From positions 1,262 to 65,261 of IMG/VR virus record IMGVR_UViG_3300014043_000154: a DNA stretch of 64,000 bases; one strand, 5' to 3'. The notes under the pieces were generated by a model. The model had not been told where the DNA came from. It ran no database searches and saw only the letters and a list, made by a program, of their open reading frames with translations. The translations under genes were made by a program, and so were the position numbers. Below are positions 11,553 to 62,097 of the stretch, in pieces. Position 1 is the stretch's first letter; every line of letters begins with the position of its first letter. The DNA is from a virus (lineage: Duplodnaviria; Caudoviricetes).

Positions 11553-14500
11553 TCAATCGTAGATAATCTTACTGCCCTCTTCCGCACTCTTGACGACCGT
11601 GAGGCTCTGCGAGAAGCGGGCTTTCATGGCCGGGTCGTGCGTGATGGCAATGATGCTGATACGCGGGTTCCTCTTCCTGATGGCCTCCATCGAATCGACA
11701 TAAGCCTGTGTGCCGTCCTCATCCAAGAACGGCGGCTCGTCGACGCCGAGGAACCCGATCTGGACACCCGAAGCCTCCATCTTGACTTCCGCGAGAGAGA
11801 GGTTGACTGCCAAAGAAGCTTTGACCTTCTCGCCTCCCGACTTGGATGTGTACGGGAGAGCTGTCTTGCCATACTCCTCGATGATGATGTCGAGCGTCGC
11901 TTTTTCGCCGTCGCGCCCCTTGACCGTCTTCTCCATCACGAAATCGACGCCCATCGTCCCTCCTGTCATGGCTCCGAGGATCCCGTTCGCCTTATCCCGG
12001 ATGTAAGGGATGATGTTCCGAATGATCTGGTGGGGGACCCCGTCCTGGCTGAATGCCGTCTTAAGGACTTCATACTTGGCCGCAAGGTCTGCAGCTTCAT
12101 CGATCCCCTTCCTGAGGCCTGCGATCTCTTCCCTCATGACCTTGATATCCTCGATCCTCTGCGTGGCAGCTCCCATCCGCATCCTGAGCGCGTCACCATT
12201 GCCCCGGAGGCTCTCTAAGTTCTTCTCCATTTCAGAAAGCATGACCCGTGAAGCATCCGGATCCTTCTCTGCAAGCAGAAGATCCAGCCTTTTTGACTCA
12301 GCTTCCAGTCTAGCCATCTCGGCACGCTTTGCTTCAAGGGATTCGTTGATCGTATTGGCGGCCACAAGGTCGGCCTCGTTCTTCGCACGCAGGGCAGGGA
12401 TGTCCTTTGCACACATTTTCGATGCTGCGCATTTCACGCAGACAAGCTTTGCCTCTTTCGTTCTTTTAACGGATTCAGCGAGCCTACTCACCGTTTCTGT
12501 GAGTTCTGAGCGTTCATATGCGCGTTTCTCGCGGATTTTCTGCTTTTCGTCGAGGGATTTTATCTTCTCGGCCACAGAAGCCATCAGCGAGGCAATCTGG
12601 ACGTTCTGTGAGGCAATCTGCGATGCCCGTTCCCTTGCCGGCGCGAGGCGTTTTACCTTTTCCTCGAGGTCAGGGATGTCCTCCGGAGAGAACCCGGTCG
12701 CTTTGATGCGGTCATTATATTCTTCGTTCAGCTGCTCCAGCGCAATCGCACATTTGGATTTAGAAGCTTCCTGATCCTTGATCTCCTGCTCGATGGCGGG
12801 GATGCCTGCGACATCTTCTTTCGCCTGAGACAGGAAGCGGCACCGGGCGTTCGCCGCATCGATGCATCCGGACCTTTCCATGAAGTCTTTCTGCCTGTTT
12901 GCCCCGGAAAGCTTCTGCCGCAGGAGTTCGATCCTGTTATCCGCCAATGAAATGAGCTTCGATACGTTCTTCGACCTGTGCTCCATTTCGTTCACCAAAG
13001 AGTAATAGTCGCCCTGCCTCTTCCGGGCTGCGGCAAGTTCGGCCTCGGCCGCTTCAAGCTCCCTGACCTTCCGTGCTACGTCTTCCGCATCGGCGGCTTC
13101 ACGTTCCATACGTTCGACATCAGCATTTGCCCGGTCAATCTCCGATGATGCGCTGGCGATCTCATTGTCCAGCGCGCCGATCTCGATACGCACATCCGCA
13201 AGTCTTTCATTAGCGGATTCATGTCTGGCGACATCCTGGGAAAGTTCCGCGATCGTGGCCATTGCCCTGTCATACGATTCCGCCTCGGCCTCGATCACGT
13301 CCGCATTGGCAAGCACTTCATTCCGTTTATCGATGGCCGCAGACAGGTCAAACGCCTTGACGGATTCACTGCAGATTTCATCGAACAGCGCTGATACCTT
13401 ACCTGTTATGTCGTCCAGCTTCGCTTTCAGGCTGTCCGCCTCATCAATATCCTTCCGCAGTTTTGTGATCTGCGCCGTAGTGCCTGAGATTTTGCCCTCA
13501 AGATCATTGATATTTCTTTCCAGCTCTGCGAGCTCGCTCTCCGGATCCCCTTTGTTTGCGATCTGCTGTTCCTTGACCTGTACGGCAGTCTTGCCGGAAG
13601 CGTAATCCCTTTTGGCCGCCGCCAGAAGGTCTCTGGCGCTCTTTTCCATCACCCCGTAGATCGAAAGGCCGAGCAGGTTCGAGAGGATCGCGATACGTTC
13701 ATCTTTCCGCGCTTCGAGGAAAAGCCCGTACTGGTCCTGCATGATGAGCGCGCATGTCTTGAACGTCATGTAATCCATTCCGAGGACATGTTCGATCTCT
13801 TTCTGCGTGTCCGCGCCTTTCTCAGAGGACATGTTCACCCATTCCCCGCCGGCATCCAGACGGGAGAGATTAACTGTTCCCTTACCGCTCTTCTGGCGGG
13901 TCCGCGTTACGCGGAACATGTGCTCGCCGATGGAGAAGGTGAATTCGATAAATCCGCTCCGGGCATCCGGCGCAGCTCTCAGCCACGCTTTAACATCGCC
14001 CTCTCTCGTCTTCTCGAACAGACAGTCCATCGGGGCATCGAAGAACAGGCTTGATTTGCCCGCTCCATTCACTCCATTGACTGACAGGAAGCTGATGTCT
14101 GTATAATCGAATTCCGCTTCCTTGTAGGCACGATAGTTCTTGACGGCGATCTTTACCGGCTTGAACTCGCCCTGGTACTCGTTCGCCTCGATCTGCTTCA
14201 GCGCCTCTCCGATGATGGGGGCTGCAAGATCTGCGACAGCTCCTGCATCCTTCACGCATTTCTCATCGAGCCACTTCTTGAGATTCTCATAAGGGTCTGA
14301 TTCCTCGTTCATGAGCCCGCGGTTCTGTACTTCTACCGTCTGCTCCGATTCGATATTCGCCACATAGAAGGCTCCCATCTCCATCAGGTCTGCTTGCAGG
14401 ACCGGGATGTTCAGCGCACGTTTCTGTGCATCATCGCATGTATACCGGAGGCGTACGATCTTTCCACCAAGAAGCTCTTTGTATCCCATTCCTACCATCA

Positions 14501-15383
14501 TGAACTGTCCATCCATGAGATAAGATGCAACATCATCAGGCTCCCAATTGAGCGTCTGGAACTGATTGTGCGGCGTAATAAAGAACTTAGACTCCCCCTC
14601 AGTGTCGTGGATCCAGAATCCCCTGACCTGTCCTTCATCATTGAAATTCAGAGCGTTGATTGCTCCAGCGTAGTAAACTCCGTCAAGGCCTTCCACTTTT
14701 TGCGGTCTGTGAACGTGTCCAAGAAGCGCATAATCGAACGCTGTTGCATTGAGGACTTCTCTCGGAAGCACAGGCTCAAAATTGGCATAGCAGCTTGTCT
14801 GGCCGGATTCGATGTTGCATCCTGGTACGGTGTAGTGCGCCATGAGGATGTTCTTCTCCCCGTTGCACTGTGCCCGAAGTCCGGAGACGATTGCTCCGAT
14901 TTGCTCTGTCCAGACCTGGTTCTCTTCATCTGCAGACAGCCCCGGGAACTTAGCCCGGAATTCCTGTTTGTCGAATCCCGGAACGACTGCGAAGTCTGCG
15001 ATCCTTGTTGCTATCACGCGCGGTTCTGTCACGACGATGACTCTGCGGTTCCCCTCCAGCATCTTCTCAAGCACACGGAACTGTCCGGCTCCGTCGTGGT
15101 TCGGTGTGCCCCTCATGACGATGACCAGCTTTGCCGTCTCAGCAAGCTCTGTGATGATCCTCGTTGCGGTCAGCATCTCATCGGAGTAGCGGACAGGTCC
15201 TACCTGCTCCTGATGGAAGATGTCGCCGGAGACACATACGATATCAGGATGCTGTGCTTTCGCAGTCTCGACCATGAATTCAAGACACTTTACAGTGGTC
15301 TTGTATCTAAGATTCATGCCGTCTTTATCGGCGGGACCTTTGAAGGGTCCCAGGTGCCAATCAGCAGTTTGCAATAATTTCAT
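11553..15383 (-). CDS. Single-chain SbcD(Mre11)-SbcC(Rad50) nuclease-ATPase fusion
   Basis: N-terminal TADWHLG, SGDIFH, GTPNHD, LGHVH phosphoesterase motifs; then GVNGAGKSS Walker A, coiled coil, KSGGEK signature, GVDEP Walker B, ITHD. Confidence 0.9.
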   Translation of the reverse strand: MKLLQTADWHLGPFKGPADKDGMNLRYKTTVKCLEFMVETAKAQHPDIVCVSGDIFHQEQVGPVRYSDEMLTATRIITELAETAKLVIVMRGTPNHDGAGQFRVLEKMLEGNRRVIVVTEPRVIATRIADFAVVPGFDKQEFRAKFPGLSADEENQVWTEQIGAIVSGLRAQCNGEKNILMAHYTVPGCNIESGQTSCYANFEPVLPREVLNATAFDYALLGHVHRPQKVEGLDGVYYAGAINALNFNDEGQVRGFWIHDTEGESKFFITPHNQFQTLNWEPDDVASYLMDGQFMMVGMGYKELLGGKIVRLRYTCDDAQKRALNIPVLQADLMEMGAFYVANIESEQTVEVQNRGLMNEESDPYENLKKWLDEKCVKDAGAVADLAAPIIGEALKQIEANEYQGEFKPVKIAVKNYRAYKEAEFDYTDISFLSVNGVNGAGKSSLFFDAPMDCLFEKTREGDVKAWLRAAPDARSGFIEFTFSIGEHMFRVTRTRQKSGKGTVNLSRLDAGGEWVNMSSEKGADTQKEIEHVLGMDYMTFKTCALIMQDQYGLFLEARKDERIAILSNLLGLSIYGVMEKSARDLLAAAKRDYASGKTAVQVKEQQIANKGDPESELAELERNINDLEGKISGTTAQITKLRKDIDEADSLKAKLDDITGKVSALFDEICSESVKAFDLSAAIDKRNEVLANADVIEAEAESYDRAMATIAELSQDVARHESANERLADVRIEIGALDNEIASASSEIDRANADVERMEREAADAEDVARKVRELEAAEAELAAARKRQGDYYSLVNEMEHRSKNVSKLISLADNRIELLRQKLSGANRQKDFMERSGCIDAANARCRFLSQAKEDVAGIPAIEQEIKDQEASKSKCAIALEQLNEEYNDRIKATGFSPEDIPDLEEKVKRLAPARERASQIASQNVQIASLMASVAEKIKSLDEKQKIREKRAYERSELTETVSRLAESVKRTKEAKLVCVKCAASKMCAKDIPALRAKNEADLVAANTINESLEAKRAEMARLEAESKRLDLLLAEKDPDASRVMLSEMEKNLESLRGNGDALRMRMGAATQRIEDIKVMREEIAGLRKGIDEAADLAAKYEVLKTAFSQDGVPHQIIRNIIPYIRDKANGILGAMTGGTMGVDFVMEKTVKGRDGEKATLDIIIEEYGKTALPYTSKSGGEKVKASLAVNLSLAEVKMEASGVQIGFLGVDEPPFLDEDGTQAYVDSMEAIRKRNPRISIIAITHDPAMKARFSQSLTVVKSAEEGSKIIYD

Positions 15384-15816
15384 GATTTTCCCTCGCTTTC
15401 TCACAAAGTTTCTTGAACTGGGGGAGAAGGAGCTTGTACTGGTCATCAGTCAGCCCGATGAAATCAAGTCCGTCTCCATCTCCTATGTCTGTCTCTCCTG
15501 CAATAATGATGTTGCCGAGGATCGGGCAGCCGTGGATGTCTGTCTGGTACAACCAGCAGCCAACAAGGTTGACTCTCTGCTGGTTGGCATAACCATCCTC
15601 ATCCACGAGCATATTCGGTCTGCATCTTCCGTTCTGCGGATATTCCGGATAAGCTCCAAGGCCTGTATAAAGTCTTACAGGCATTACGTGCTCGACCATT
15701 CTGCATCCATTTCCGATCATCCCGGTAAGGGCATCATGTCTTGTCTTCCAGTCTCCGGACGGATAATCCTCTGTCCGGAGTTCATTGTCTGTCGTGATAA
15801 CGATCACTTTGTTCAT
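15361..15816 (-). CDS. DUF3846-like protein
   Basis: MLVDEDG...NL.GC.LY....HG.PI.GNIII. Confidence 0.65.
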   Translation of the reverse strand: MNKVIVITTDNELRTEDYPSGDWKTRHDALTGMIGNGCRMVEHVMPVRLYTGLGAYPEYPQNGRCRPNMLVDEDGYANQQRVNLVGCWLYQTDIHGCPILGNIIIAGETDIGDGDGLDFIGLTDDQYKLLLPQFKKLCEKARENHEIIANC

Positions 15817-54142: not shown

Positions 54143-55540
54143 TTACCTGTGTGTCTTACGCTTGATCATCCTCTCAATGAACCGCTCAAATGTGTATTCA
54201 AAAGCATCCATCGAATCAATGTCCGATGTTCCGTTATCGAGACGGATGTTCTGCGTTGGTTGCTGCGGGTCCCAGATCGCAGTACCAATCGCCCCCATGA
54301 GCGACCTGCAATCAGGCTCCACATAATAAAATCGCTCCTGCGCATACATGGCGGTCAGAGCGAATATTCTATCGTTTATGTATGTCTTGAGGGCATCTTC
54401 CACCCTCAGATTGATGCCGGCCTCGGCGAGTGCGTTCCTCATTCCTCGGATAAGGACCTGTTCTTCCGAATCGGCATATACTACTGTTACAAATCCGAAT
54501 ATCCTCTGGACATCACGGACGAACCTCAGAAAGAACTGATTGAATTCGTTCGGTCCTACGTCCGCAATACGCATCCCGGTATCTTCATCGTTACCGCCCT
54601 CAAGGTATCTCCGGCTCCTGAGAGCTATCATCTTCTCATAATTCCGTGTCAGGCCTGTTGCCACGAAGGCATGTCCAGATCCGTTCCCGCCGAAGTCAAC
54701 ACCTATGATGACCTTGACAATCTCCATCGACCTTGCCTGCTGTGCCGTAATGCTGTGCGGTTTTATCTGCCCGGCAGGAAGGGAAAATTCAGCAGCCATC
54801 TTCGGATATATGAGACCTTCAGCAATACATCTCTGGCCGAGAATGTCTCGGTTGTACCATATCGTCCCAGGCTCATACTGAGAGATAAACTCTTTACGTG
54901 ACTCTTCTGATATGTTGATGTTGTCGAAGATCGTGAACTGCTTGTAGTTGACGCCGCCGAGCATCTCTCCCTTTGCAGCCCTCTCAACATACTTGTCGAT
55001 GTACTCTGTGTAGATAGGTGAATTAGGATGATCTGGGTTCAGATCCCAAAAGAACTTCCTCCGATGGGATGCGAGTGTTCGGTTGAATGCCTCCTTGATG
55101 GTGTTGTCGTGATGCAGGTTAATCTCTGTCGCAATCCACATAGCCGGCGAAGATCCACGGAAGGACTTGAAACTGTCGGCCTTGCCACCGCCGCAGAAGA
55201 TGACTATCTTCTGCTCATAATGCGTGTCAGGTCCGCTGATGATAAGCGCCTCATTTCCTTTGTACTTTCCCCAATGACACTGATTGTGGAATATATGCTC
55301 CAGACCGAATCCGTTACAATCACCGATGTTCAGCTTCGCGATAGCTCCGGTACTCCCTGTTGCCAGGAATATTTTGTCTGGATGATCCTTCAGTTCGTAG
55401 GCGAACGCTTTCACGTTGTCCACCGTCTTACCGGCTCTGACTGCTCCCTCTGCGATATTGTAGGTGTTATCCTTGCACGCCCTGATATACTCGATGTGCT
55501 TCCGAGAGAAATTGAAGTCAATCGTCTTCCGACGCTTCAC
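54143..55540 (-). CDS. terL: Terminase large subunit (PBSX-type)
   Basis: EGAVRAGKT Walker A, DLNPDHP, GVDFG, D.MDA.EY; GTG start with GGAGGG RBS. Confidence 0.92.
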   Translation of the reverse strand: MKRRKTIDFNFSRKHIEYIRACKDNTYNIAEGAVRAGKTVDNVKAFAYELKDHPDKIFLATGSTGAIAKLNIGDCNGFGLEHIFHNQCHWGKYKGNEALIISGPDTHYEQKIVIFCGGGKADSFKSFRGSSPAMWIATEINLHHDNTIKEAFNRTLASHRRKFFWDLNPDHPNSPIYTEYIDKYVERAAKGEMLGGVNYKQFTIFDNINISEESRKEFISQYEPGTIWYNRDILGQRCIAEGLIYPKMAAEFSLPAGQIKPHSITAQQARSMEIVKVIIGVDFGGNGSGHAFVATGLTRNYEKMIALRSRRYLEGGNDEDTGMRIADVGPNEFNQFFLRFVRDVQRIFGFVTVVYADSEEQVLIRGMRNALAEAGINLRVEDALKTYINDRIFALTAMYAQERFYYVEPDCRSLMGAIGTAIWDPQQPTQNIRLDNGTSDIDSMDAFEYTFERFIERMIKRKTHR

Positions 55541-56612
55541 TTCCCTCCGCGTCTGCCGACACCGGAGAGTCCTGTGCGTTGTCCGCATCGTCCTCACCTC
55601 CATATATCAGTGCATCGATTTCCGACGCATCTTCGATTTCCAGATCTGTGCCGAGAAGTTTATTCGTCTGAGCATCGACCTGCTCGATGCGTGCGTCAAG
55701 GAGTTCAAGTTCAAGTTTGTCTTTTTCACGCACATGAGCAATCCGACTAACCTTGGAATCAAGTAGTTCAACTTCTCTCTTACTCTTTTCTTCCATGTTG
55801 CGAATTTGGCTAACACGAGCATCAAGAAGTTCAAGTTCAAGCTGTCGTTTCCTGTCTCTATGGCAAGCACTCTCCCTCGACTCTCTCAGATCTTCAAGCT
55901 GTTTGAGGTCAGCTGATATCTGTTTCTGGATGGATGTTAACTCCCTGTCCAAACGTGCGATAAGGTCAATCGTTGCCTCAGTCCTTGTATCCTTCTCCCC
56001 TTCCTCTCCAGGAAGTGCCACGCCGGCTGCCACAGCGATTTCCTTCACCCGTTTGTATTCCTGCTTCTCCTTCTCTCCTTCTTCTCCCTTTGCGAATACT
56101 CTTTCCTTCCGAATCTGGTTGATAGATGAGATATAGAGCGGGTCCTTCTTTTTCTCTTCGATGGCGGCCATGACACGCCTCTCACGAATCGTGAGCACCT
56201 GTATCTCCATGATGAGACGGTCTTCCGTATCGAAGTCAGACATATTCTCAAGGAGTTCCTTATCCTCATCTCCGAGGAAGTTGAAGAACACGGCTCGATA
56301 TGCCCCATGCTTGACGGCTTTTTGATTACGAGGAGCAGATGATTTATTCCCGACAGCGTTCTTGTTACCCTTCGGCGCCCCTCTCTTCTTTTTCCGAGCG
56401 TTCGTTTTCTTGCTCGCCTTTTTGGCTGGTTTCTTATCAGGCTTCTTTTTTTCCGAACGTTCGGATTTATCTGCGTCCCACTTCTGGGTTGACTTCCAGC
56501 GTCGGACAGTGCCCGCGGGGACTCCAAGTTCCTCAGCAATATCTTTGAGCAGCTTCCCGTCATGATACATCTGCTCAGCTTTTATGCTGTCTGGACTTCT
56601 TGCCCTTGGCAT
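55518..56612 (-). CDS. terS: Terminase small subunit (N-terminal HTH) with 21-aa repeats
   Basis: LKDIAEELGV..GTVRRWKS..KW, GAP.GNKNA.G, KHG. Confidence 0.85.
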   Translation of the reverse strand: MPRARSPDSIKAEQMYHDGKLLKDIAEELGVPAGTVRRWKSTQKWDADKSERSEKKKPDKKPAKKASKKTNARKKKRGAPKGNKNAVGNKSSAPRNQKAVKHGAYRAVFFNFLGDEDKELLENMSDFDTEDRLIMEIQVLTIRERRVMAAIEEKKKDPLYISSINQIRKERVFAKGEEGEKEKQEYKRVKEIAVAAGVALPGEEGEKDTRTEATIDLIARLDRELTSIQKQISADLKQLEDLRESRESACHRDRKRQLELELLDARVSQIRNMEEKSKREVELLDSKVSRIAHVREKDKLELELLDARIEQVDAQTNKLLGTDLEIEDASEIDALIYGGEDDADNAQDSPVSADAEGSEASEDD

Positions 56613-56653
56613 TGTCCGTCTCCCTCCTTTGTGTGTTTTGGCAGGACAGCAGA

Positions 56654-56685
56654 AAGGAAGACGGTTTGGGGATTCCGTCTTCCTT
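56654..56685. terminator. 11-bp inverted repeat between the ParB gene and terS
   Basis: AAGGAAGACGG-N10-CCGTCTTCCTT. Confidence 0.5.
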
Positions 56686-56758
56686 GGTGTGTTCTACTAT
56701 CCCTATAACATATTCGCTCTGAATTATCTGACATCATACGATTATGGCAGGTCGTTTA

Positions 56759-57277
56759 TTACATCTTTGTCAGAAATTCAGCTTTTGAATATTCATTCTT
56801 GCCGCTCGCCATCATCTTCAAGAAATCATCCTTTGAGAAATCCGACAGGCGGAATATCTCTTCCGGCTTCATGCCGAGCTGTTTGCCGATCTCATCAACC
56901 GATTTTCCCTCATCCATCAGCTCTTTCACGATCTTCTTCATCGGTTCGAGCAAGTGCGTACCTCTCGCCCTGTTGTGCGTGACGGTTCCGTATATGTCCT
57001 CGGAGTGTTCCTTATGTGCAACAATCACGATAGGAACCATACCACCGAGCATGCGCATCATATCTGGTTCACCGGCAACTGTCCACCGGTGGAATCCATC
57101 AATGATTGTCCTGTCAGGCCTGCACACGATCGGGAGCGTCCACCCATTCGTCAGGATGGACTGTTTGAGGAGCTTGAGGTTCTCTTTAGAGACCACATTC
57201 GGGTTATAATCATTCGGTTTCACGGTTTCCCTGGGCACCCACTGCAGCGTCGCGAGAGGAGCTCTCAGATCATTCAT
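56759..57277 (-). CDS. IbrB-like ParB/Srx-domain protein
   Basis: PNDYNPN, GWTLPIV, IIDGFHR, TVTHNRARG.H. Confidence 0.85.
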   Translation of the reverse strand: MNDLRAPLATLQWVPRETVKPNDYNPNVVSKENLKLLKQSILTNGWTLPIVCRPDRTIIDGFHRWTVAGEPDMMRMLGGMVPIVIVAHKEHSEDIYGTVTHNRARGTHLLEPMKKIVKELMDEGKSVDEIGKQLGMKPEEIFRLSDFSKDDFLKMMASGKNEYSKAEFLTKM

Positions 57278-58416
57278 GGCCGTTTCGCCTCCTTTCGTTT
57301 AGCTTCCTGTATATATTTGCCATATATACGTGTGTAGAGTGCCCGGTATGTCCTCAGCTTCGGGTCACCGGACATCAGTCCTTCATAAATCATCTTATAG
57401 TCAGCATTGGTTGCCACCTTTGAGACGTTCATGAAGAACCTCTGGTATCTTGATGCAACATACCTGTGATGTTCGTTCGGGAAATATCTTTCAGGGTTCT
57501 TGAATACCTCTATGAGTTCCGCTTTGTAATCACGGTCGCTCTCGGTTTCAAGCCTCCTGCGCTTTCTCGAAGTACGGCCGAACATCTCACTGTCCCAATA
57601 GAGGGCTGCGAGATATGCGTTCGGCTCCCTGCGTATGACACGTTCCATGAGGTCAGGATAATACTCGTTCATCTTGACCAGGCTCCTTGCCGTATCCACA
57701 GAGAAGAACTGCGATACTCGGAGCTGCTGTTTGCTGGATCCTGACTGCCACAGATACAGGTATATATCCGGGATGTTCACATGGTTCTCATAGAGGAACT
57801 TCCAGACATCCCCGTTCGTCCAGTCATAGATCGGGAACACGGCGTGCTTGTTCGTCATTGTCCGTCCCGCTCTAAGCATCGATGCGATATTGGTCAATCT
57901 CTGAATCGATTCTGCGGCCCGTACACCCGTTATTGTGATGCCGGACGTACAGATACGAGGCAGGAAATCCTGATATGCATCAATCCTCGGATTCAGTTTC
58001 GGATGTGTCCGTATTGCGAATGGGGGAGGCTGTCTCACCCAAACATCTTTCTTCGTGCTGTCCCAACAGATGAACGTCTCATCGTTGGTCAGGGAATTGA
58101 AGCAGTTGAAGTGCTTGACTTCCACGCAAAACCATTCAAACGCCGCGCCCACCATGAGGAACTTCTTCCGCCAGTTGCGAACCGTTTGTTCTATACACGG
58201 GAATATCGCCTCCTCATCAATGAACTGGACTGTTAATTGCTTCGGGTTGATCTCGCCTCTCTGGATGAGCTGCATGGTTATCTCCGCCATGCACAATGTA
58301 TCTTTCCCTCCGGAGAAGCTCATAAAGACGGGCAGGCCGTTATTGAAGACGTTCTTTATGCGGATCTCAGCCGCCTTCACGACATCAATGCTCGCCTTGC
58401 ATCTCTTTATAGCCAA
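57274..58416 (-). CDS. IbrA-like PAPS-reductase-family (PP-loop) protein
   Basis: SFSGGKD, DEEAIFP, TGVRAAES..R, PIYDW...DVW, LRVSQ. Confidence 0.85.
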   Translation of the reverse strand: MAIKRCKASIDVVKAAEIRIKNVFNNGLPVFMSFSGGKDTLCMAEITMQLIQRGEINPKQLTVQFIDEEAIFPCIEQTVRNWRKKFLMVGAAFEWFCVEVKHFNCFNSLTNDETFICWDSTKKDVWVRQPPPFAIRTHPKLNPRIDAYQDFLPRICTSGITITGVRAAESIQRLTNIASMLRAGRTMTNKHAVFPIYDWTNGDVWKFLYENHVNIPDIYLYLWQSGSSKQQLRVSQFFSVDTARSLVKMNEYYPDLMERVIRREPNAYLAALYWDSEMFGRTSRKRRRLETESDRDYKAELIEVFKNPERYFPNEHHRYVASRYQRFFMNVSKVATNADYKMIYEGLMSGDPKLRTYRALYTRIYGKYIQEAKRKEAKRP

Positions 58417-59036
58417 ATGCGTTCACCGCACTTCGGGCAGATAACAAAACGTCCGGTCTCCGCTCTCTCCGGATCGTCCGCAGGAGCAGTCCCCTGCGCT
58501 TCCGTGTTCTGTGCCGGTGCGGGCTGTGCGACAGGCTGCGGAGAGGCGGTTTCCCTTTCTTCCTCGCGGCGTGTCTGTTCCCTGATGGTATCGATCTCCG
58601 ACTGATCAAGAGTGCCATAATTGGAGATCTGTTCGGTCAGCTCATCGGCGTCCGCGAACATCTGTCTCAGGATGTCCTCATCATATCCAGGAATATCGAG
58701 GTCACCCTGCAGTTCGGATAAAAATTCGTTCAGAGTGTCCATGTTTTCTATCCCCAGATTGAATATCTTGTTGTCGGCGATCATCAGTTTCTTTTTCTGT
58801 GCGCTCGTCAGATCATCATATTTATATACCCTCGCTTCCTCGATACCGAGGCGCATGAGGGTCAGATACAATCCGTTCCCCGCGAGTATCTCATTGTTCT
58901 CATCCACGACGATGGGGCGGATCTGGCCGAACATCCTGATTGATTTCTCAAATTCTTTCAGCTGTTGGTCTGTGTGTATGCGGACATTGCGCTCAGGCGC
59001 TTTGAGGTCCGCGACTTTCATTACTAATTCCTGCAT
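58407..59036 (-). CDS. ParB N-terminal domain protein with C-terminal zinc ribbon
   Basis: N.R.H...Q....SI..FGQ.RPIVVDE...ILAGNG, IADNK, CPKCG. Confidence 0.85.
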   Translation of the reverse strand: MQELVMKVADLKAPERNVRIHTDQQLKEFEKSIRMFGQIRPIVVDENNEILAGNGLYLTLMRLGIEEARVYKYDDLTSAQKKKLMIADNKIFNLGIENMDTLNEFLSELQGDLDIPGYDEDILRQMFADADELTEQISNYGTLDQSEIDTIREQTRREEERETASPQPVAQPAPAQNTEAQGTAPADDPERAETGRFVICPKCGERIWL

Positions 59037-59079
59037 TATTCCTCCGATCTGGAGGAGCAATGGGACCGCCTGCAAGCGG

Positions 59080-59838
59080 TCATTCAATTCCGAGCGTTCG
59101 CTTTGCGTTCTCAGCGAGTTCACTGTCTATGGCTGCGATTTCTTCCCATCCGTTACCATGCGTCCACTGCCTTGCCGGCCATGGATGCGTTCCGCACAGA
59201 TATCCGTTATGCCATCCATAGATGGGCGGCATGTCCAGTCCATGGTAATGGATATATGCGAGGATGGCTTCATGTGGCCATTCGGACAGGGGGCTGTATC
59301 TGGTCACTCCCTCGTTCGCATTGGTATAGATATTCGTCCCCCGGCCTACAAAGTTCCCGTCTGCCTTTCGCCTGCCGAGCAGGATCATATCAAGGCTGTG
59401 CGCCTTATAATACTTCGCCTGGGCGCGGTGCTGAACGATATGGAACCACTGGGCTGCCTTCTGGCTCGTATCCGGGAAAAGCATTCCCATGTGCTTTTTC
59501 AGCCATTCGAGGTCCTGTCCCGTATTGATGATCTCACATCCTTCAGGGGCGTTCTCCCTTACCCATGAATCAAAGGCGGGGTATTCAAGGTTCGTTACGG
59601 CGATCATGCTCTCATGGATTCCGGCTTTCTCACAGATGTCCCCGAGGACGATGCTGTCCTTGCCTGCGCTCCACGCATATGCGGCATGCTTATCCCCCAC
59701 GGTAGCCTTGATTTCTTCAATCGTCTGGCCGACGAGCTCATCCAGCTCAGGACGGGTGACATATTCCTCGATATGCACCATGGCTTCAAGCCAGCTCAGG
59801 TTGTCGATGTTCTGTTTCCTTCCGAGGACTTTCTTCAT
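59080..59838 (-). CDS. Second PAPS-reductase-family (PP-loop) protein
   Basis: AWSAGKDS, LGRRKADG, SPLSEW.HE.ILAYI. Confidence 0.8.
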   Translation of the reverse strand: MKKVLGRKQNIDNLSWLEAMVHIEEYVTRPELDELVGQTIEEIKATVGDKHAAYAWSAGKDSIVLGDICEKAGIHESMIAVTNLEYPAFDSWVRENAPEGCEIINTGQDLEWLKKHMGMLFPDTSQKAAQWFHIVQHRAQAKYYKAHSLDMILLGRRKADGNFVGRGTNIYTNANEGVTRYSPLSEWPHEAILAYIHYHGLDMPPIYGWHNGYLCGTHPWPARQWTHGNGWEEIAAIDSELAENAKRTLGIE

Positions 59839-61244
59839 GCACTCACCTCCTGCCTGACCTTTGAAGCAGCTACCGCAATGATCCCGGAGATGAGCACTGT
59901 ATAAAGCGCAGCGCACGATTTCAGCACGGACAGGTTATTGATCGTCGCATATGCGAAAACAGGAAGTCCGGTCAAAAGAGAGACGCTGACACCTGCTACG
60001 ATTGCGCCTGCCCTCAGTTTCTTGCCGAGCAGTGTCATGACCGTCGGCAGGAGCGTGGTCGCTCTCAATGTTCCGTAGACAAGAAACATCTTCGTGACCG
60101 TCAGTCCAGGAATATTGGCGATTAATATGCCTACGACCAGCAGGCCGACCATGACACCCTTTGAGAACCGCATTTTTCCTGCATCATCTAACTTGCCGGT
60201 AACTTGCCAGTCTGTCGTAAGGGATGCCGCGGCACACAGATTACTGTCCACTGTCGAGAGCAATCCGCTCATCAGCATGAAGATGAACGGTACGACCACC
60301 CATGCCGGGAACAGATGCTGAATCAGTTCCAGATTGACCGTCCCTGTGTCCTGTGCTGTAAATCCCGAACCTGCAGCTATGAATCCGAGTATTCCCATAC
60401 TGAGCGGAACCAATCCGAACAGGAAGGCACCGAGCGCAAACGCACGCCCTATCTTCTTCTCGTCAATACTGAACGCCCTCTGCCAGAAGCACTGGTCTCC
60501 GAACGGACCGGAAACGAGCCCTATCGCAGTGGGAAGTCCAAATCCTATCAGAACCTCGATTCCCTTCCCGCTGAACAGACTGGCGTACTCACCAGATGCG
60601 CCTGTGAAGCCTCTCGTCATGTTTTCGATGCCGTGCGGGTTTCCCAATGCCCACGGGACAAAAACGGCGCATGCGGCCAATATGAGGACCATCTGAACGA
60701 CGTCCGTCATGACCGATGCGCGTATCCCTGAGAACTGCGAGTATGAATATGCGATGACCGCCAGCAGAACCGTGACAAGGGTAAAGTCAAGGCCTGTCGT
60801 TACGCTGAGTATCTTGCCCCCTGCAAGGAGCTGGACAGCGGTCGACAGGATCGTGAGGCCTGCGAGCTGGACACCGTAGACCTTACGTACGCCTTCGCTC
60901 CGGTATTCGTGCCCCATGAATCCCGAGAGCGTGATGCCGTCCGGCATCCTCTTACGGATGCGTTCCGCGAAGGGTATGAAGAACAGCAGGCATAAAACAT
61001 TCGGTACGAGGAACCAGAACAGGCCGGGCACACCATTGATATAGGCCTTTTCCGCAGAAGTGAAGAGCGCCGGCGCCCAGATCCATGTCGCTGCAATCGA
61101 CATGGCGGATGCCACAGCCCCCATCTTCCTGTTGCCGACATAGAAGTCATCGGCACCGTTCCCCTTCCGTGCAAAGAGTAATGTTGCGGCCATCATGACC
61201 GCGAAGTACACAAACAGCAGTATCAGTCCATTAAATCCATTCAT
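59835..61244 (-). CDS. Sodium:solute symporter family transporter
   Basis: DFYVGNR, SIAATWIWA, G.RASVMTD..Q, SGLLST.DS; about 13 TM segments. Confidence 0.88.
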   Translation of the reverse strand: MNGFNGLILLFVYFAVMMAATLLFARKGNGADDFYVGNRKMGAVASAMSIAATWIWAPALFTSAEKAYINGVPGLFWFLVPNVLCLLFFIPFAERIRKRMPDGITLSGFMGHEYRSEGVRKVYGVQLAGLTILSTAVQLLAGGKILSVTTGLDFTLVTVLLAVIAYSYSQFSGIRASVMTDVVQMVLILAACAVFVPWALGNPHGIENMTRGFTGASGEYASLFSGKGIEVLIGFGLPTAIGLVSGPFGDQCFWQRAFSIDEKKIGRAFALGAFLFGLVPLSMGILGFIAAGSGFTAQDTGTVNLELIQHLFPAWVVVPFIFMLMSGLLSTVDSNLCAAASLTTDWQVTGKLDDAGKMRFSKGVMVGLLVVGILIANIPGLTVTKMFLVYGTLRATTLLPTVMTLLGKKLRAGAIVAGVSVSLLTGLPVFAYATINNLSVLKSCAALYTVLISGIIAVAASKVRQEVSA

Positions 61245-61322
61245 TGATATTCTCCTTTTTTGATTTTCGAAGAAACACCCGGCCGTTGTGAATCCTGCCT
61301 CCTTCCCACGGTATGAATGGAA

Positions 61323-61386
61323 AAGCCCCCGGGGGATACCCAGGGGCTTCATGGCAATGACGTGATTTTGCTTTTTTAGCATATCA
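61323..61386 (-). promoter_or_regulatory. Extended -10 promoter and leader hairpin of the symporter operon
   Basis: TGATATGCT (61386-61378); AAGCCCC/GGGGCTT hairpin at 61323-61349. Confidence 0.5.
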
Positions 61387-61470
61387 CAATCCGTGAATTA
61401 AAGAAAGACTAAAATCGCATTTTCCGCGAACTGTTCTTACATACCGTATATTTTCAACAAATATCACCTC

Positions 61471-62097
61471 TTATGTTGTGAATTTCAGCCCATCTACCCC
61501 AAAAATCAGGGATGCAAGACTCTCCTCTGCAACGGCAAGGTCCGAATAGAGTGTGGGGAGGGTGACCCCCAGTTTTGCCGCGGCTTCCGACATCTTGAGC
61601 TTCGTGACATTCAGGTAAACGATCTGCACTGCGCGGTACCTTCTTTTCTCGCGATCGCCATGGGCGTAGCAGAAGGACTTATACACCTCTATCATCCTGT
61701 CCACATGGGCCAGTATGACCGCGGTCTTTTCAGATGACTGCCTGATCGCATCAACGACACAACGGTCGTCACCCTTCATCAGCATGAGGATGTCAAGTTC
61801 TTCAGACGCACGCTTTGCGACCTCACGATTCCAGACAGCCTCCTCGCATCCCTTTTTGAGCATTCGGTAATTGCGCAGGAGAAGCTTTGTATTCCGCAGA
61901 CGCCTGTCCTTGAACGCCTTCGTCTTATCCGCATACGCATACTCCATCTCACGAACCGTCTCCGCCGCGGTCTCGAAAGCCGTCTTACGGATAAGTGCAC
62001 CCAGCTCTTCCTCGGTCATAACGATAAAACGGTTATGCAACTCGTCATCCGGTAAAGCCGTCGTGACTTCCGCCTTATTCTCCGGCATTACTCTCAC
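61471..62097 (-). CDS. Late-gene transcriptional activator (RinA/ArpU-like, sigma70-r4 HTH)
   Basis: NTKLLLRNYR, C-terminal HTH SEAAAKLGV...TLYSD; end of early operon. Confidence 0.7.
   Translation of the reverse strand: MRVMPENKAEVTTALPDDELHNRFIVMTEEELGALIRKTAFETAAETVREMEYAYADKTKAFKDRRLRNTKLLLRNYRMLKKGCEEAVWNREVAKRASEELDILMLMKGDDRCVVDAIRQSSEKTAVILAHVDRMIEVYKSFCYAHGDREKRRYRAVQIVYLNVTKLKMSEAAAKLGVTLPTLYSDLAVAEESLASLIFGVDGLKFTT

Follow-up and report, generated by a model that had tools for sequence, protein, structure and literature searches.

An importer-coupled variant of the IbrA/IbrB-type PP-loop/ParB module at the head of a phage late operon

Introduction

Why should a tailed phage place a sodium/solute symporter, two PP-loop enzymes and two ParB-type proteins directly ahead of its terminase genes? 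The question is raised by a five-gene cassette in a 64,000-nucleotide stretch of a Caudoviricetes gut phage (the window), which comprises bases 1262-65261 of the 65,261-bp IMG/VR virus record IMGVR_UViG_3300014043_000154 (CheckV completeness 100%). The original prediction for this DNA, made from the letters of the sequence, read the genes as a pathway that imports a small molecule, activates it with ATP and installs it on phage DNA or another target. Two of the genes resemble IbrA and IbrB, whose PP-loop/ParB pairing is among the commonest unexplained gene pairs of phages and is routinely counted as sulfur metabolism in gut-virome studies. Our literature search found no mechanistic paper on IbrA/IbrB, and none that describes the unit or links a symporter with phosphoadenylylsulfate (PAPS) reductase and ParB genes in phages. 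We find that the cassette is a strongly conserved, new, importer-coupled variant of the IbrA/IbrB-type module, and we weigh what it may do.

Results

Five co-oriented open reading frames (ORFs) on the minus strand span 61244-56759, between a late-regulator gene and terS. The first encodes an SSF-family symporter (61244..59835; 469 amino acids from an ATG with the ribosome binding site AAGGAGA; PF00474 E 4.5e-21, phrog_20720 E 6.5e-177). It is followed by PP1, a short PP-loop ATP-pyrophosphatase of the PAPS-reductase superfamily (59838..59080; 252 amino acids; PAPS_reduct E 1.7e-8, phrog_424 E 8.7e-31), and by ParB-Z, in which a ParB N-terminal-type domain is joined through an acidic linker to a C-terminal CPxCG knuckle (59036..58407; 209 amino acids; phrog_620 E 1.2e-49). 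An IbrA-like PP-loop enzyme with a TTG start (58416..57274; 380 amino acids; PAPS_reduct E 3.5e-11, phrog_2302 E 9.2e-92) and an IbrB-like ParB/Srx protein (57277..56759; 172 amino acids; phrog_2159 E 1.1e-72) complete the set. The symporter and pp1 genes overlap in an ATGA, as do ibrA and ibrB, and parbZ runs 10 nt into ibrA; a separate GGAGG site serves parbZ, 41 nt past the pp1 stop. The tight coupling of the five genes that had been claimed is therefore borne out, and so is their place directly upstream of the terminase, as terS (56612..55518, minus strand; PF10668 E 3.1e-12, phrog_1889 E 2.8e-50), terL and the portal gene come next after ibrB. The predicted closing inverted repeat is present between ibrB and terS (about 56703..56644, minus strand; 10-bp core stem 56684..56655; z-score of the minimum-free-energy fold -3.3), but its U-run is poor, so that it makes no clear terminator. 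As an accessory insertion, the cassette opens the phage late (packaging) operon, and from this position it should be expressed together with the terminase in lytic growth.

The original prediction had named conserved linkage of the five genes as one of the points on which it could fail, and the linkage proved to be strongly kept, to an extent well above chance, in both directions and in two divergent clades. Scanned with the symporter as query, IMG/VR yielded 143 relatives, and the context of the best 80 was examined (55-97% identical; clade 1); the same scan of one genome per GTDB species gave 334 stretches confirmed to encode a relative, again with the best 80 examined. About 230 viral and prophage loci reached through the symporter carry the gene set. 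The order symporter-(pp1)-parbZ-ibrA is found in 74 of the 80 clade-1 IMG/VR loci, with ibrB in nearly all, and five of the six exceptions are loci in which a contig end cuts the cassette off. The type of terminase differs from locus to locus among these 80. Roughly 70 of the 80 GTDB prophage loci carry the set, mostly in Lachnospiraceae and Oscillospiraceae. The hosts beyond the main families also include Flavonifractor, two Treponema metagenome-assembled genomes and cultivable gut anaerobes: Anaerotruncus colihominis DSM 17241, Agathobaculum (A. desmolans ATCC 43058), Acetatifactor (A. muris DSM 23669) and Clostridioides difficile (one genome, on the chromosome). The prevailing GTDB arrangement is late regulator, symporter, pp1, parbZ, ibrA, ibrB, terS, terL, and in most loci a phrog_1558 gene directly precedes the leader. 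Since pp1 is missing from 17 of the 80 clade-1 loci, about a fifth, we describe the unit as a four-gene core with an optional fifth gene. One locus (L254) holds a decayed cassette.

A second clade, found via a 50%-cluster representative and with symporters about 42% identical to that of the window, keeps all the genes with ibrB placed before ibrA. It also carries an extra gene of about 200 codons between the symporter and pp1, whose product has a signal peptide and a beta-barrel-like sequence and matches no Pfam family (for example L083:8723-9409 and L084:4707-5312, with about 70 others in L082-L160). In one locus (L082) the barrel-like part is fused to the symporter itself; this 762-residue protein, P0138, had been considered as a symporter-PP1 fusion until its extra tail proved to be barrel-like instead. 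The neighbours of the barrel-like gene in a protein atlas are outer-membrane-barrel families, mostly of Bacteroidota, which we treat as a lead only. The protein is probably an outer-membrane channel of Bacteroidota phages, to judge from these sequence features, and an outer-membrane component in two-membrane hosts is what a true uptake route would need.

The converse linkage is as close. Scanning viral sequences with an IbrA alignment yielded 76 new loci, 65 of them with enough upstream sequence to judge, and a symporter is present in 63 of the 65. Among 401 sampled Lachnospiraceae genomes the IbrA matches are bimodal, with the cassette type in 4 (E below 1e-190) and a paralogue at E 1e-35 or weaker in about 55; each of the four cassette-type genes is preceded, at 0.7-1.5 kb and in the same orientation, by a gene for a phage-type symporter. 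No INPHARED phage or E. coli genome matched the cassette in a Megablast search, and a protein search found symporter, PP1 and IbrA together in a single record, of fecal metagenomic origin. Longer PP1 relatives were considered as Rosetta-stone fusions and set aside: they are 8 rare proteins, some of them read-throughs joining SSF and PAPS_reduct that probably lost a stop at the ATGA junction.

The transporter belongs to the SSF family by a wide margin (PF00474, 75.6 bits against a cut-off of 22.8, over residues 80-456 of the long ORF). Like PutP, PanF, SiaT, DUR3, CHT1 and NIS it matches Pfam SSF over its full length, but it resembles any characterised member only at E 1e-13 to 1e-21, falls below every NCBIfam equivalog cut-off (PanF 77 against 328 bits, PutP 64 against 515, ActP 28 against 1099) and sits in a phage-restricted clade with motifs of its own. 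Among proteins of solved structure it comes nearest to CHT-like, DUR3, NIS and SiaT, none of them better than E 4e-13. The phage-specific clade comprises 237 clusters at 50% identity (E<=1e-30) and shares the motifs SIAATWxWAP, FGDQxFWQR and GLxSTxDS; from its sequence, we take the invariant GLxSTxDS to hold the Ser/Thr pair of the conserved SSF sodium site.

The transport slot is refilled rather than lost. In one of the two IbrA-found loci that lack an SSF gene (L303), a 331-residue multi-pass membrane protein outside any Pfam family is translationally coupled to pp1, and proteins of 331-333 residues recur in this role in six more loci (L303:3631-4626; L382:2453-3454; L334-L338). The replacement is a remote, shortened SSF relative, with the SIAATW motif in common, an hhalign probability of 79% and an atlas score of 0.92, and so gives no independent clue to the substrate; the atlas holds several virus-only clusters of it. 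Distant symporter relatives were likewise of no help as substrate clues. The P0252 clade of aquatic phages, about 29% identical, has neighbours unrelated to the cassette (L248:8575-9257 and L241-L249, adjoining IscU- and IscA-like genes, a metallophosphoesterase and a conserved 229-residue protein), and P0235 yielded no viral locus.

Both PP-loop proteins keep a canonical ATP-pyrophosphatase loop, SFSGGKDS/T in the IbrA-like enzyme. PP1 has invariant WSxGKDS and LGRRxxDGN motifs and no invariant cysteine; the cysteine of its 'CGTH' motif is present in 107 of 152 sequences and is replaced by valine, lysine and others elsewhere. The C-terminal domain of the IbrA-like enzyme is helical, and its clade has a specific motif, C97-x4-H102-x2-C105-x11-C117, conserved in at least 96% of 164 sequences, that may bind a metal or cluster. 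AlphaFold2 models of the two proteins (mean predicted local distance difference test scores of 94.8 for PP1 and 82 for the IbrA-like enzyme) have NcsA, TtuA, the PAPS domain of FAD synthase, CysH, CysD, TilS, LarE and GMP synthase as structural neighbours in the PDB; for PP1 the Foldseek neighbours are generic PP-loop proteins only (CysH, TtuA, CysD, TilS).

Profile searches of PDB sequences with the two proteins gave E 5e-4 or weaker, and neither reaches a curated cut-off for CysH, CysD, DndC or BrxP. For CysH, PP1 scores 18 bits against 165 (TIGR00434) and 16 against 154 (NF002537), and the IbrA-like enzyme has no cysH match and no cysteine at the place of the C-terminal catalytic one (ECGLH-type). 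For DndC the score is 19 bits against 290 (TIGR03183), with a PADLOC match of E 1.6e-6 over residues 160-212 only, and the PADLOC BrxP matches cover short stretches only (E 0.005 for PP1, 3.6e-4 for IbrA-like); what these two PADLOC models pick out is a motif of some 55 residues. In three prophage cassettes (L163:10154-10753, L167:10179-10772, L233:10149-10766) pp1 and parbZ are separated by a gene for a glutamine amidotransferase of class II (MCGI start; GATase_6/7), a hint that PP1 performs an ATP-dependent amidation.

The identities first assigned to the five genes hold at the level of superfamilies; 'IbrA-like' denotes homology to IbrA rather than membership. Aligned with the canonical IbrA of C. 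difficile, the cassette enzyme gives an hhalign probability of 99.5% over residues 9-282 at 25% identity, and PF01507 (PAPS_reduct) is found in 45 of 45 cassette members. At E<=1, DUF3440 (PF11922) is found in none of the 45, whereas the canonical IbrA of the same host genomes matches it at about 1e-86. Canonical IbrA has 430-480 residues with DUF3440, as against 380 without it in the cassette, and of the cysteine-histidine motif only the first cysteine aligns with a cysteine of the canonical protein. On this sequence comparison the cassette IbrA is best described as a sister clade of canonical IbrA. The cassette IbrB family hidden Markov model (HMM) retrieves canonical IbrB partners at E of about 1e-34. 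Canonical pairs, with PAPS_reduct and DUF3440 in IbrA, occur elsewhere in the same host genomes (about 55 of the 401 Lachnospiraceae genomes, C. difficile and Anaerotruncus; L332:3108-4966 in C. difficile, and L328, L329, L330, L331 and L333). They resemble the cassette in setting a PAPS-reductase-fold PP-loop enzyme beside a small ParB/Srx protein, and they too are often phage-borne and near the terminase; unlike them, cassette IbrA is invariably accompanied by ParB-Z and a transporter, and as a rule by PP1 too.

The two ParB-type proteins provide the probable link to DNA. The IbrB-like protein carries the motifs TIIDGFHRW (DGfHRW) and NRARGTHLLEPM and a C-terminal segment resembling a helix-turn-helix (HTH); its ParB_N score of 25.6 bits falls just short of the cut-off of 26.3. 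The combination that marks an IbrB, a ParB/Srx domain with DGxHR beside IbrA, is present, as DGFHR is conserved and the gene overlaps ibrA. Against parB_part (TIGR00180, cut-off 58.45) the ParB-type proteins of the cassette score 18.6 and 21.7 bits. ParB-Z is below the Pfam ParB_N cut-off; it matches phrog_498, the N-domain of ParB-methylase fusions, at E 2.3e-31 and PADLOC MTase_II at 4e-14.

In a sister phage (L406) a ParB-Z-like domain is fused to an N6_N4 DNA methylase (L406:787-2235; PF01555 E 1.6e-26) between the late regulator and terS, which confirms, for one phage, the earlier claim that DNA-modification enzymes in this place often have ParB-domain genes at their side. The cassette shares with these phrog_498-type fusions the N-terminal domain and the genomic slot; it differs in that the domain stands alone with a CPxCG tail and the catalytic partner is a PP-loop enzyme rather than an S-adenosylmethionine-dependent methylase. 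The same domain in the same slot points to DNA as the probable target of the cassette, and the L406 fusion is the best evidence for it in this analysis. The slot between late regulator and terS is itself a swap site for DNA-directed accessory genes, empty in one sister phage (L340) and holding the methylase fusion in L406.

The 226-nt leader of the late operon (61470..61245, minus strand), as read from sequence and fold, separates the symporter from the phrog_1558 gene (61471..62097, minus strand; E 1.2e-39), whose 208-residue product has a C-terminal HTH and may be a late regulator or antiterminator. On the minus strand it contains a weak -35/-10 pair (TTTCTT, 17 nt, TATGCT, the last at 61383..61378), a -10-like CAAAAT box (61370..61365), a strong intrinsic-terminator hairpin with a U-run (61350..61322) and then a GGGAAGGAGG segment, followed by anti-Shine-Dalgarno/Shine-Dalgarno (anti-SD/SD) pairing ahead of the symporter start. 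Across 41 diverse loci the order is TTGACA, 17 nt, TAnAAT, a GTAAAATTCTAA box a few bases on, a GC-rich hairpin with a U-run, CCGGGAAAGGAG, and GCTCCTCC...GGAGG, where the anti-SD GCTCCTCC is able to pair with the GGAGG of the symporter; the -35 is degenerate in the window. A consensus promoter scan found 5 sites against 6.3 expected by chance.

The operon had been credited with its own promoter. A conserved upstream element does exist, but it is the late promoter of the phage with its leader terminator, because the cassette-less sister L340 (IMGVR_UViG_3300012007_000130) has the same promoter, box and terminator after the regulator gene and then terS at once. L340 is a close relative (regulator 74% identical; terL and portal E 1e-214 or better), and its terS ribosome site matches the ibrB-terS junction of the window. 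As it keeps leader, terS, terL and portal but has no cassette, packaging does not depend on the latter. In L406 the ParB-methylase gene, too, is preceded by this promoter, box and terminator (leaders at L340:3678-4025 and L406:641-800). The arrangement, with a promoter, a -10-like box (TAAAAT) shortly after it and a terminator no more than about 60 nt from the start, resembles lambdoid pR'/tR', which would suggest late antitermination of the Q type.

Anti-SD/SD hairpins (CTCCTCC...GGAGG type) precede the starts of both the symporter and ParB-Z (61251-61285 and 59040-59062, minus strand). Many loci keep the symporter hairpin and, further upstream, the CCGGGAAAGGAG segment, a possible competitor for the anti-SD; such hairpins may exert translational control of the membrane protein. 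RNAalifold derived no consensus pairs from a MAFFT alignment of the leaders, since the hairpins do not line up with one another there. No Rfam family reaches its gathering score anywhere in the window, and within 61150-61560 the matches are at chance level, so the idea of a known riboswitch in the leader was rejected.

Apart from the cassette, the replacement-free reading of the replication module shows one further feature: SbcD-like (phrog_100) and SbcC-like (phrog_77) parts are joined there in a single 1297-residue chain (11553-15446, minus strand).

Discussion

The reading that we favour, tentatively and at a little less than even confidence, is that the cassette, expressed late, serves to import a small molecule and, through ParB-guided adenylation by IbrA, to attach it or a derivative to progeny DNA, probably as an anti-restriction measure. 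The SSF transporter would take up the compound from the gut lumen, and phages of Gram-negative hosts would supply an outer-membrane barrel of their own for the uptake. ParB-Z and IbrB, as ParB/Srx-type DNA proteins, would bring the IbrA-like enzyme to phage DNA, where it would spend ATP on adenylating a chemical group of either the DNA or the imported compound; the compound, or a derivative of it, would thereby be attached before packaging. PP1 could serve as an optional second ATP-pyrophosphatase that pre-processes the compound, for example by amidation or another activation, sometimes with the class-II glutamine amidotransferase. The likely benefit would be that progeny DNA is shielded from host restriction. 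We infer the direction of transport, DNA as the target, the adenylation chemistry and the anti-restriction role. It is possible, with less confidence again, that the cassette performs a new kind of DNA hypermodification with a gut metabolite scavenged from the environment, in which an importer (with an outer-membrane channel in diderms) feeds an IbrA-type enzyme guided by two ParB/Srx proteins and adenylation occurs just before packaging.

Several of our observations weigh against this reading. The symporter is equally distant from PanF, PutP, CHT-like, DUR3, NIS and SiaT, so its substrate cannot be read from homology; Foldseek and HMM matches of the PP-loop proteins are generic, and neither solved structures nor named relatives point to a reaction; and the amidotransferase clue comes from 3 loci. 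ParB-Z is without the CTP-binding arginines of ParB, GxxRxxA being replaced by iLxGxG. Canonical IbrA/IbrB pairs come without importer, PP1 or ParB-Z. One locus keeps the symporter alone before terS, with no enzymes (L341), and another keeps symporter and pp1 only (L182), so that a separate function of the transporter is conceivable. Because the slot between regulator and terS is a hotspot where accessory genes in general are found, adjacency alone could reflect a shared history as cargo. Pairwise identities of the symporter do correlate with those of ibrA, ibrB and parbZ (r = 0.83-0.87, against 0.86-0.91 for the enzymes among themselves), but phage relatedness and shared ancestry inflate these values.

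These points lend themselves to other explanations. The transporter could be independent nutrient-uptake cargo that shares a hotspot and a history with an IbrA/IbrB-type module needing no import. The lone symporter in L341, the importer-free canonical pairs, the distant aquatic SSF clade with its unrelated neighbours and the other cargo held by the slot in L406 would all fit, yet the symporter is translationally coupled to pp1 through an ATGA, cassette-type IbrA has it upstream in 63 of 65 and 4 of 4 cases, and the linkage outlasts changes of gene order and of host envelope, with an outer-membrane gene added. Where the SSF gene is absent it has been replaced by another transporter, and late-operon expression would be odd for a gene of host fitness. 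We regard this as unlikely, though the least unlikely of the alternatives. Alternatively, the enzymes may act on a small molecule or nucleotide instead of DNA, PP1 and IbrA making a cofactor, a nucleotide analogue or a signal that aids the phage, for instance by feeding replication or blunting host defence, with the ParB/Srx proteins as nucleoside triphosphate-using enzymes or regulators. ParB/Srx domains can be NTPases instead of DNA clamps, the PAPS-reductase fold includes small-molecule adenylyltransferases (with CysD and the PAPS domain of FAD synthase among the structural neighbours here), PP1 with a class-II amidotransferase recalls small-molecule amidoligases, and L182 has the symporter with PP1 alone. 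The domain of ParB-Z is the one fused to DNA methylases, however, IbrB has an HTH-like tail, the terminase-adjacent position is typical of DNA-modification genes and the gene that can be dispensed with is that of PP1, the most 'metabolic' protein of the set; we find this explanation improbable.

A regulatory or packaging-accessory role, as the name IbrAB implies, would agree with the homology to IbrA/IbrB and with the placement between late regulator and terS, but the close sister L340 packages without the cassette, and a purely regulatory role would hardly account for a dedicated importer, an outer-membrane channel and two ATP-pyrophosphatases; we therefore consider this explanation quite unlikely. 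Least probable by far, and in our view very nearly dismissed, is the usual annotation, that these are auxiliary metabolic genes of sulfur assimilation (phage cysH). It has the Pfam PAPS_reduct matches in its favour, as well as published labels of sulfur/host metabolism for such genes (Kieft et al., bioRxiv 10.1101/2021.01.05.425418; PMC12323421), among them the phrog_424 and phrog_2302 genes lying two ORFs apart in C. clostridioforme LM41 phi14 (PMC11318856). That phage apparently bears the cassette as well, which would add its host to the cultivable gut anaerobes named above. Against the label, both proteins keep the canonical ATP-pyrophosphatase loop, the catalytic cysteine is not conserved in PP1 and is absent at that place from IbrA, the NCBIfam cysH score is roughly a ninth of its cut-off, and the partners are ParB-type DNA proteins. 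To our knowledge, SSF is not a family of sulfate carriers.

The favoured reading, in which an imported compound is attached to DNA, can be compared with known systems that act on DNA. We know of no importer for Dnd or Ssp systems. DndBC pairs a PAPS-reductase-fold ATP-pyrophosphatase with a ParB-superfamily protein and acts on DNA (PMC10853773). The cassette shares with DndC/DndB, SspD and BrxP this pairing of PP-loop and ParB-type proteins, and the conserved cysteines of its IbrA could hold a metal or cluster. The partners dndA/D/E or sspA/B/C are not among the cassette genes, the rest of the phage not having been scanned for them, and the analogy to DndC and SspD drawn in the original prediction extends to the fold and no further, as the DndC score indicates. 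In the Dpd system (DpdA, the ParB-like DpdB and Gat-QueC) a ParB-like ATPase likewise helps a DNA-modifying enzyme; in the 7-deazaguanine pathway the PP-loop enzyme QueC is in some cases linked with a glutamine amidotransferase, and the precursor can be salvaged. PP1 lacks the QueC family signal and cysteine cluster, and the amidotransferase of the cassette is of class II and found in 3 loci only. No tRNA-guanine transglycosylase/DpdA (PF01702) was found in the 65-kb record, while 14 of 14 control genomes match, and we rejected 7-deazaguanine modification because the phage lacks this enzyme.

The importer-coupled version offers a handle on the chemistry of the IbrA/IbrB family: its substrate must cross a dedicated transporter, and should therefore be findable by uptake assays or metabolomics. 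If phage DNA is indeed modified with a scavenged compound, the cassette would represent a new route of phage counter-defence and would tie phage fitness to gut metabolites. It would also correct a widespread annotation error, as many 'phage cysH' auxiliary metabolic genes of gut viromes would prove to be mislabelled, and it would provide the first biochemical function for the widespread IbrA/IbrB family.

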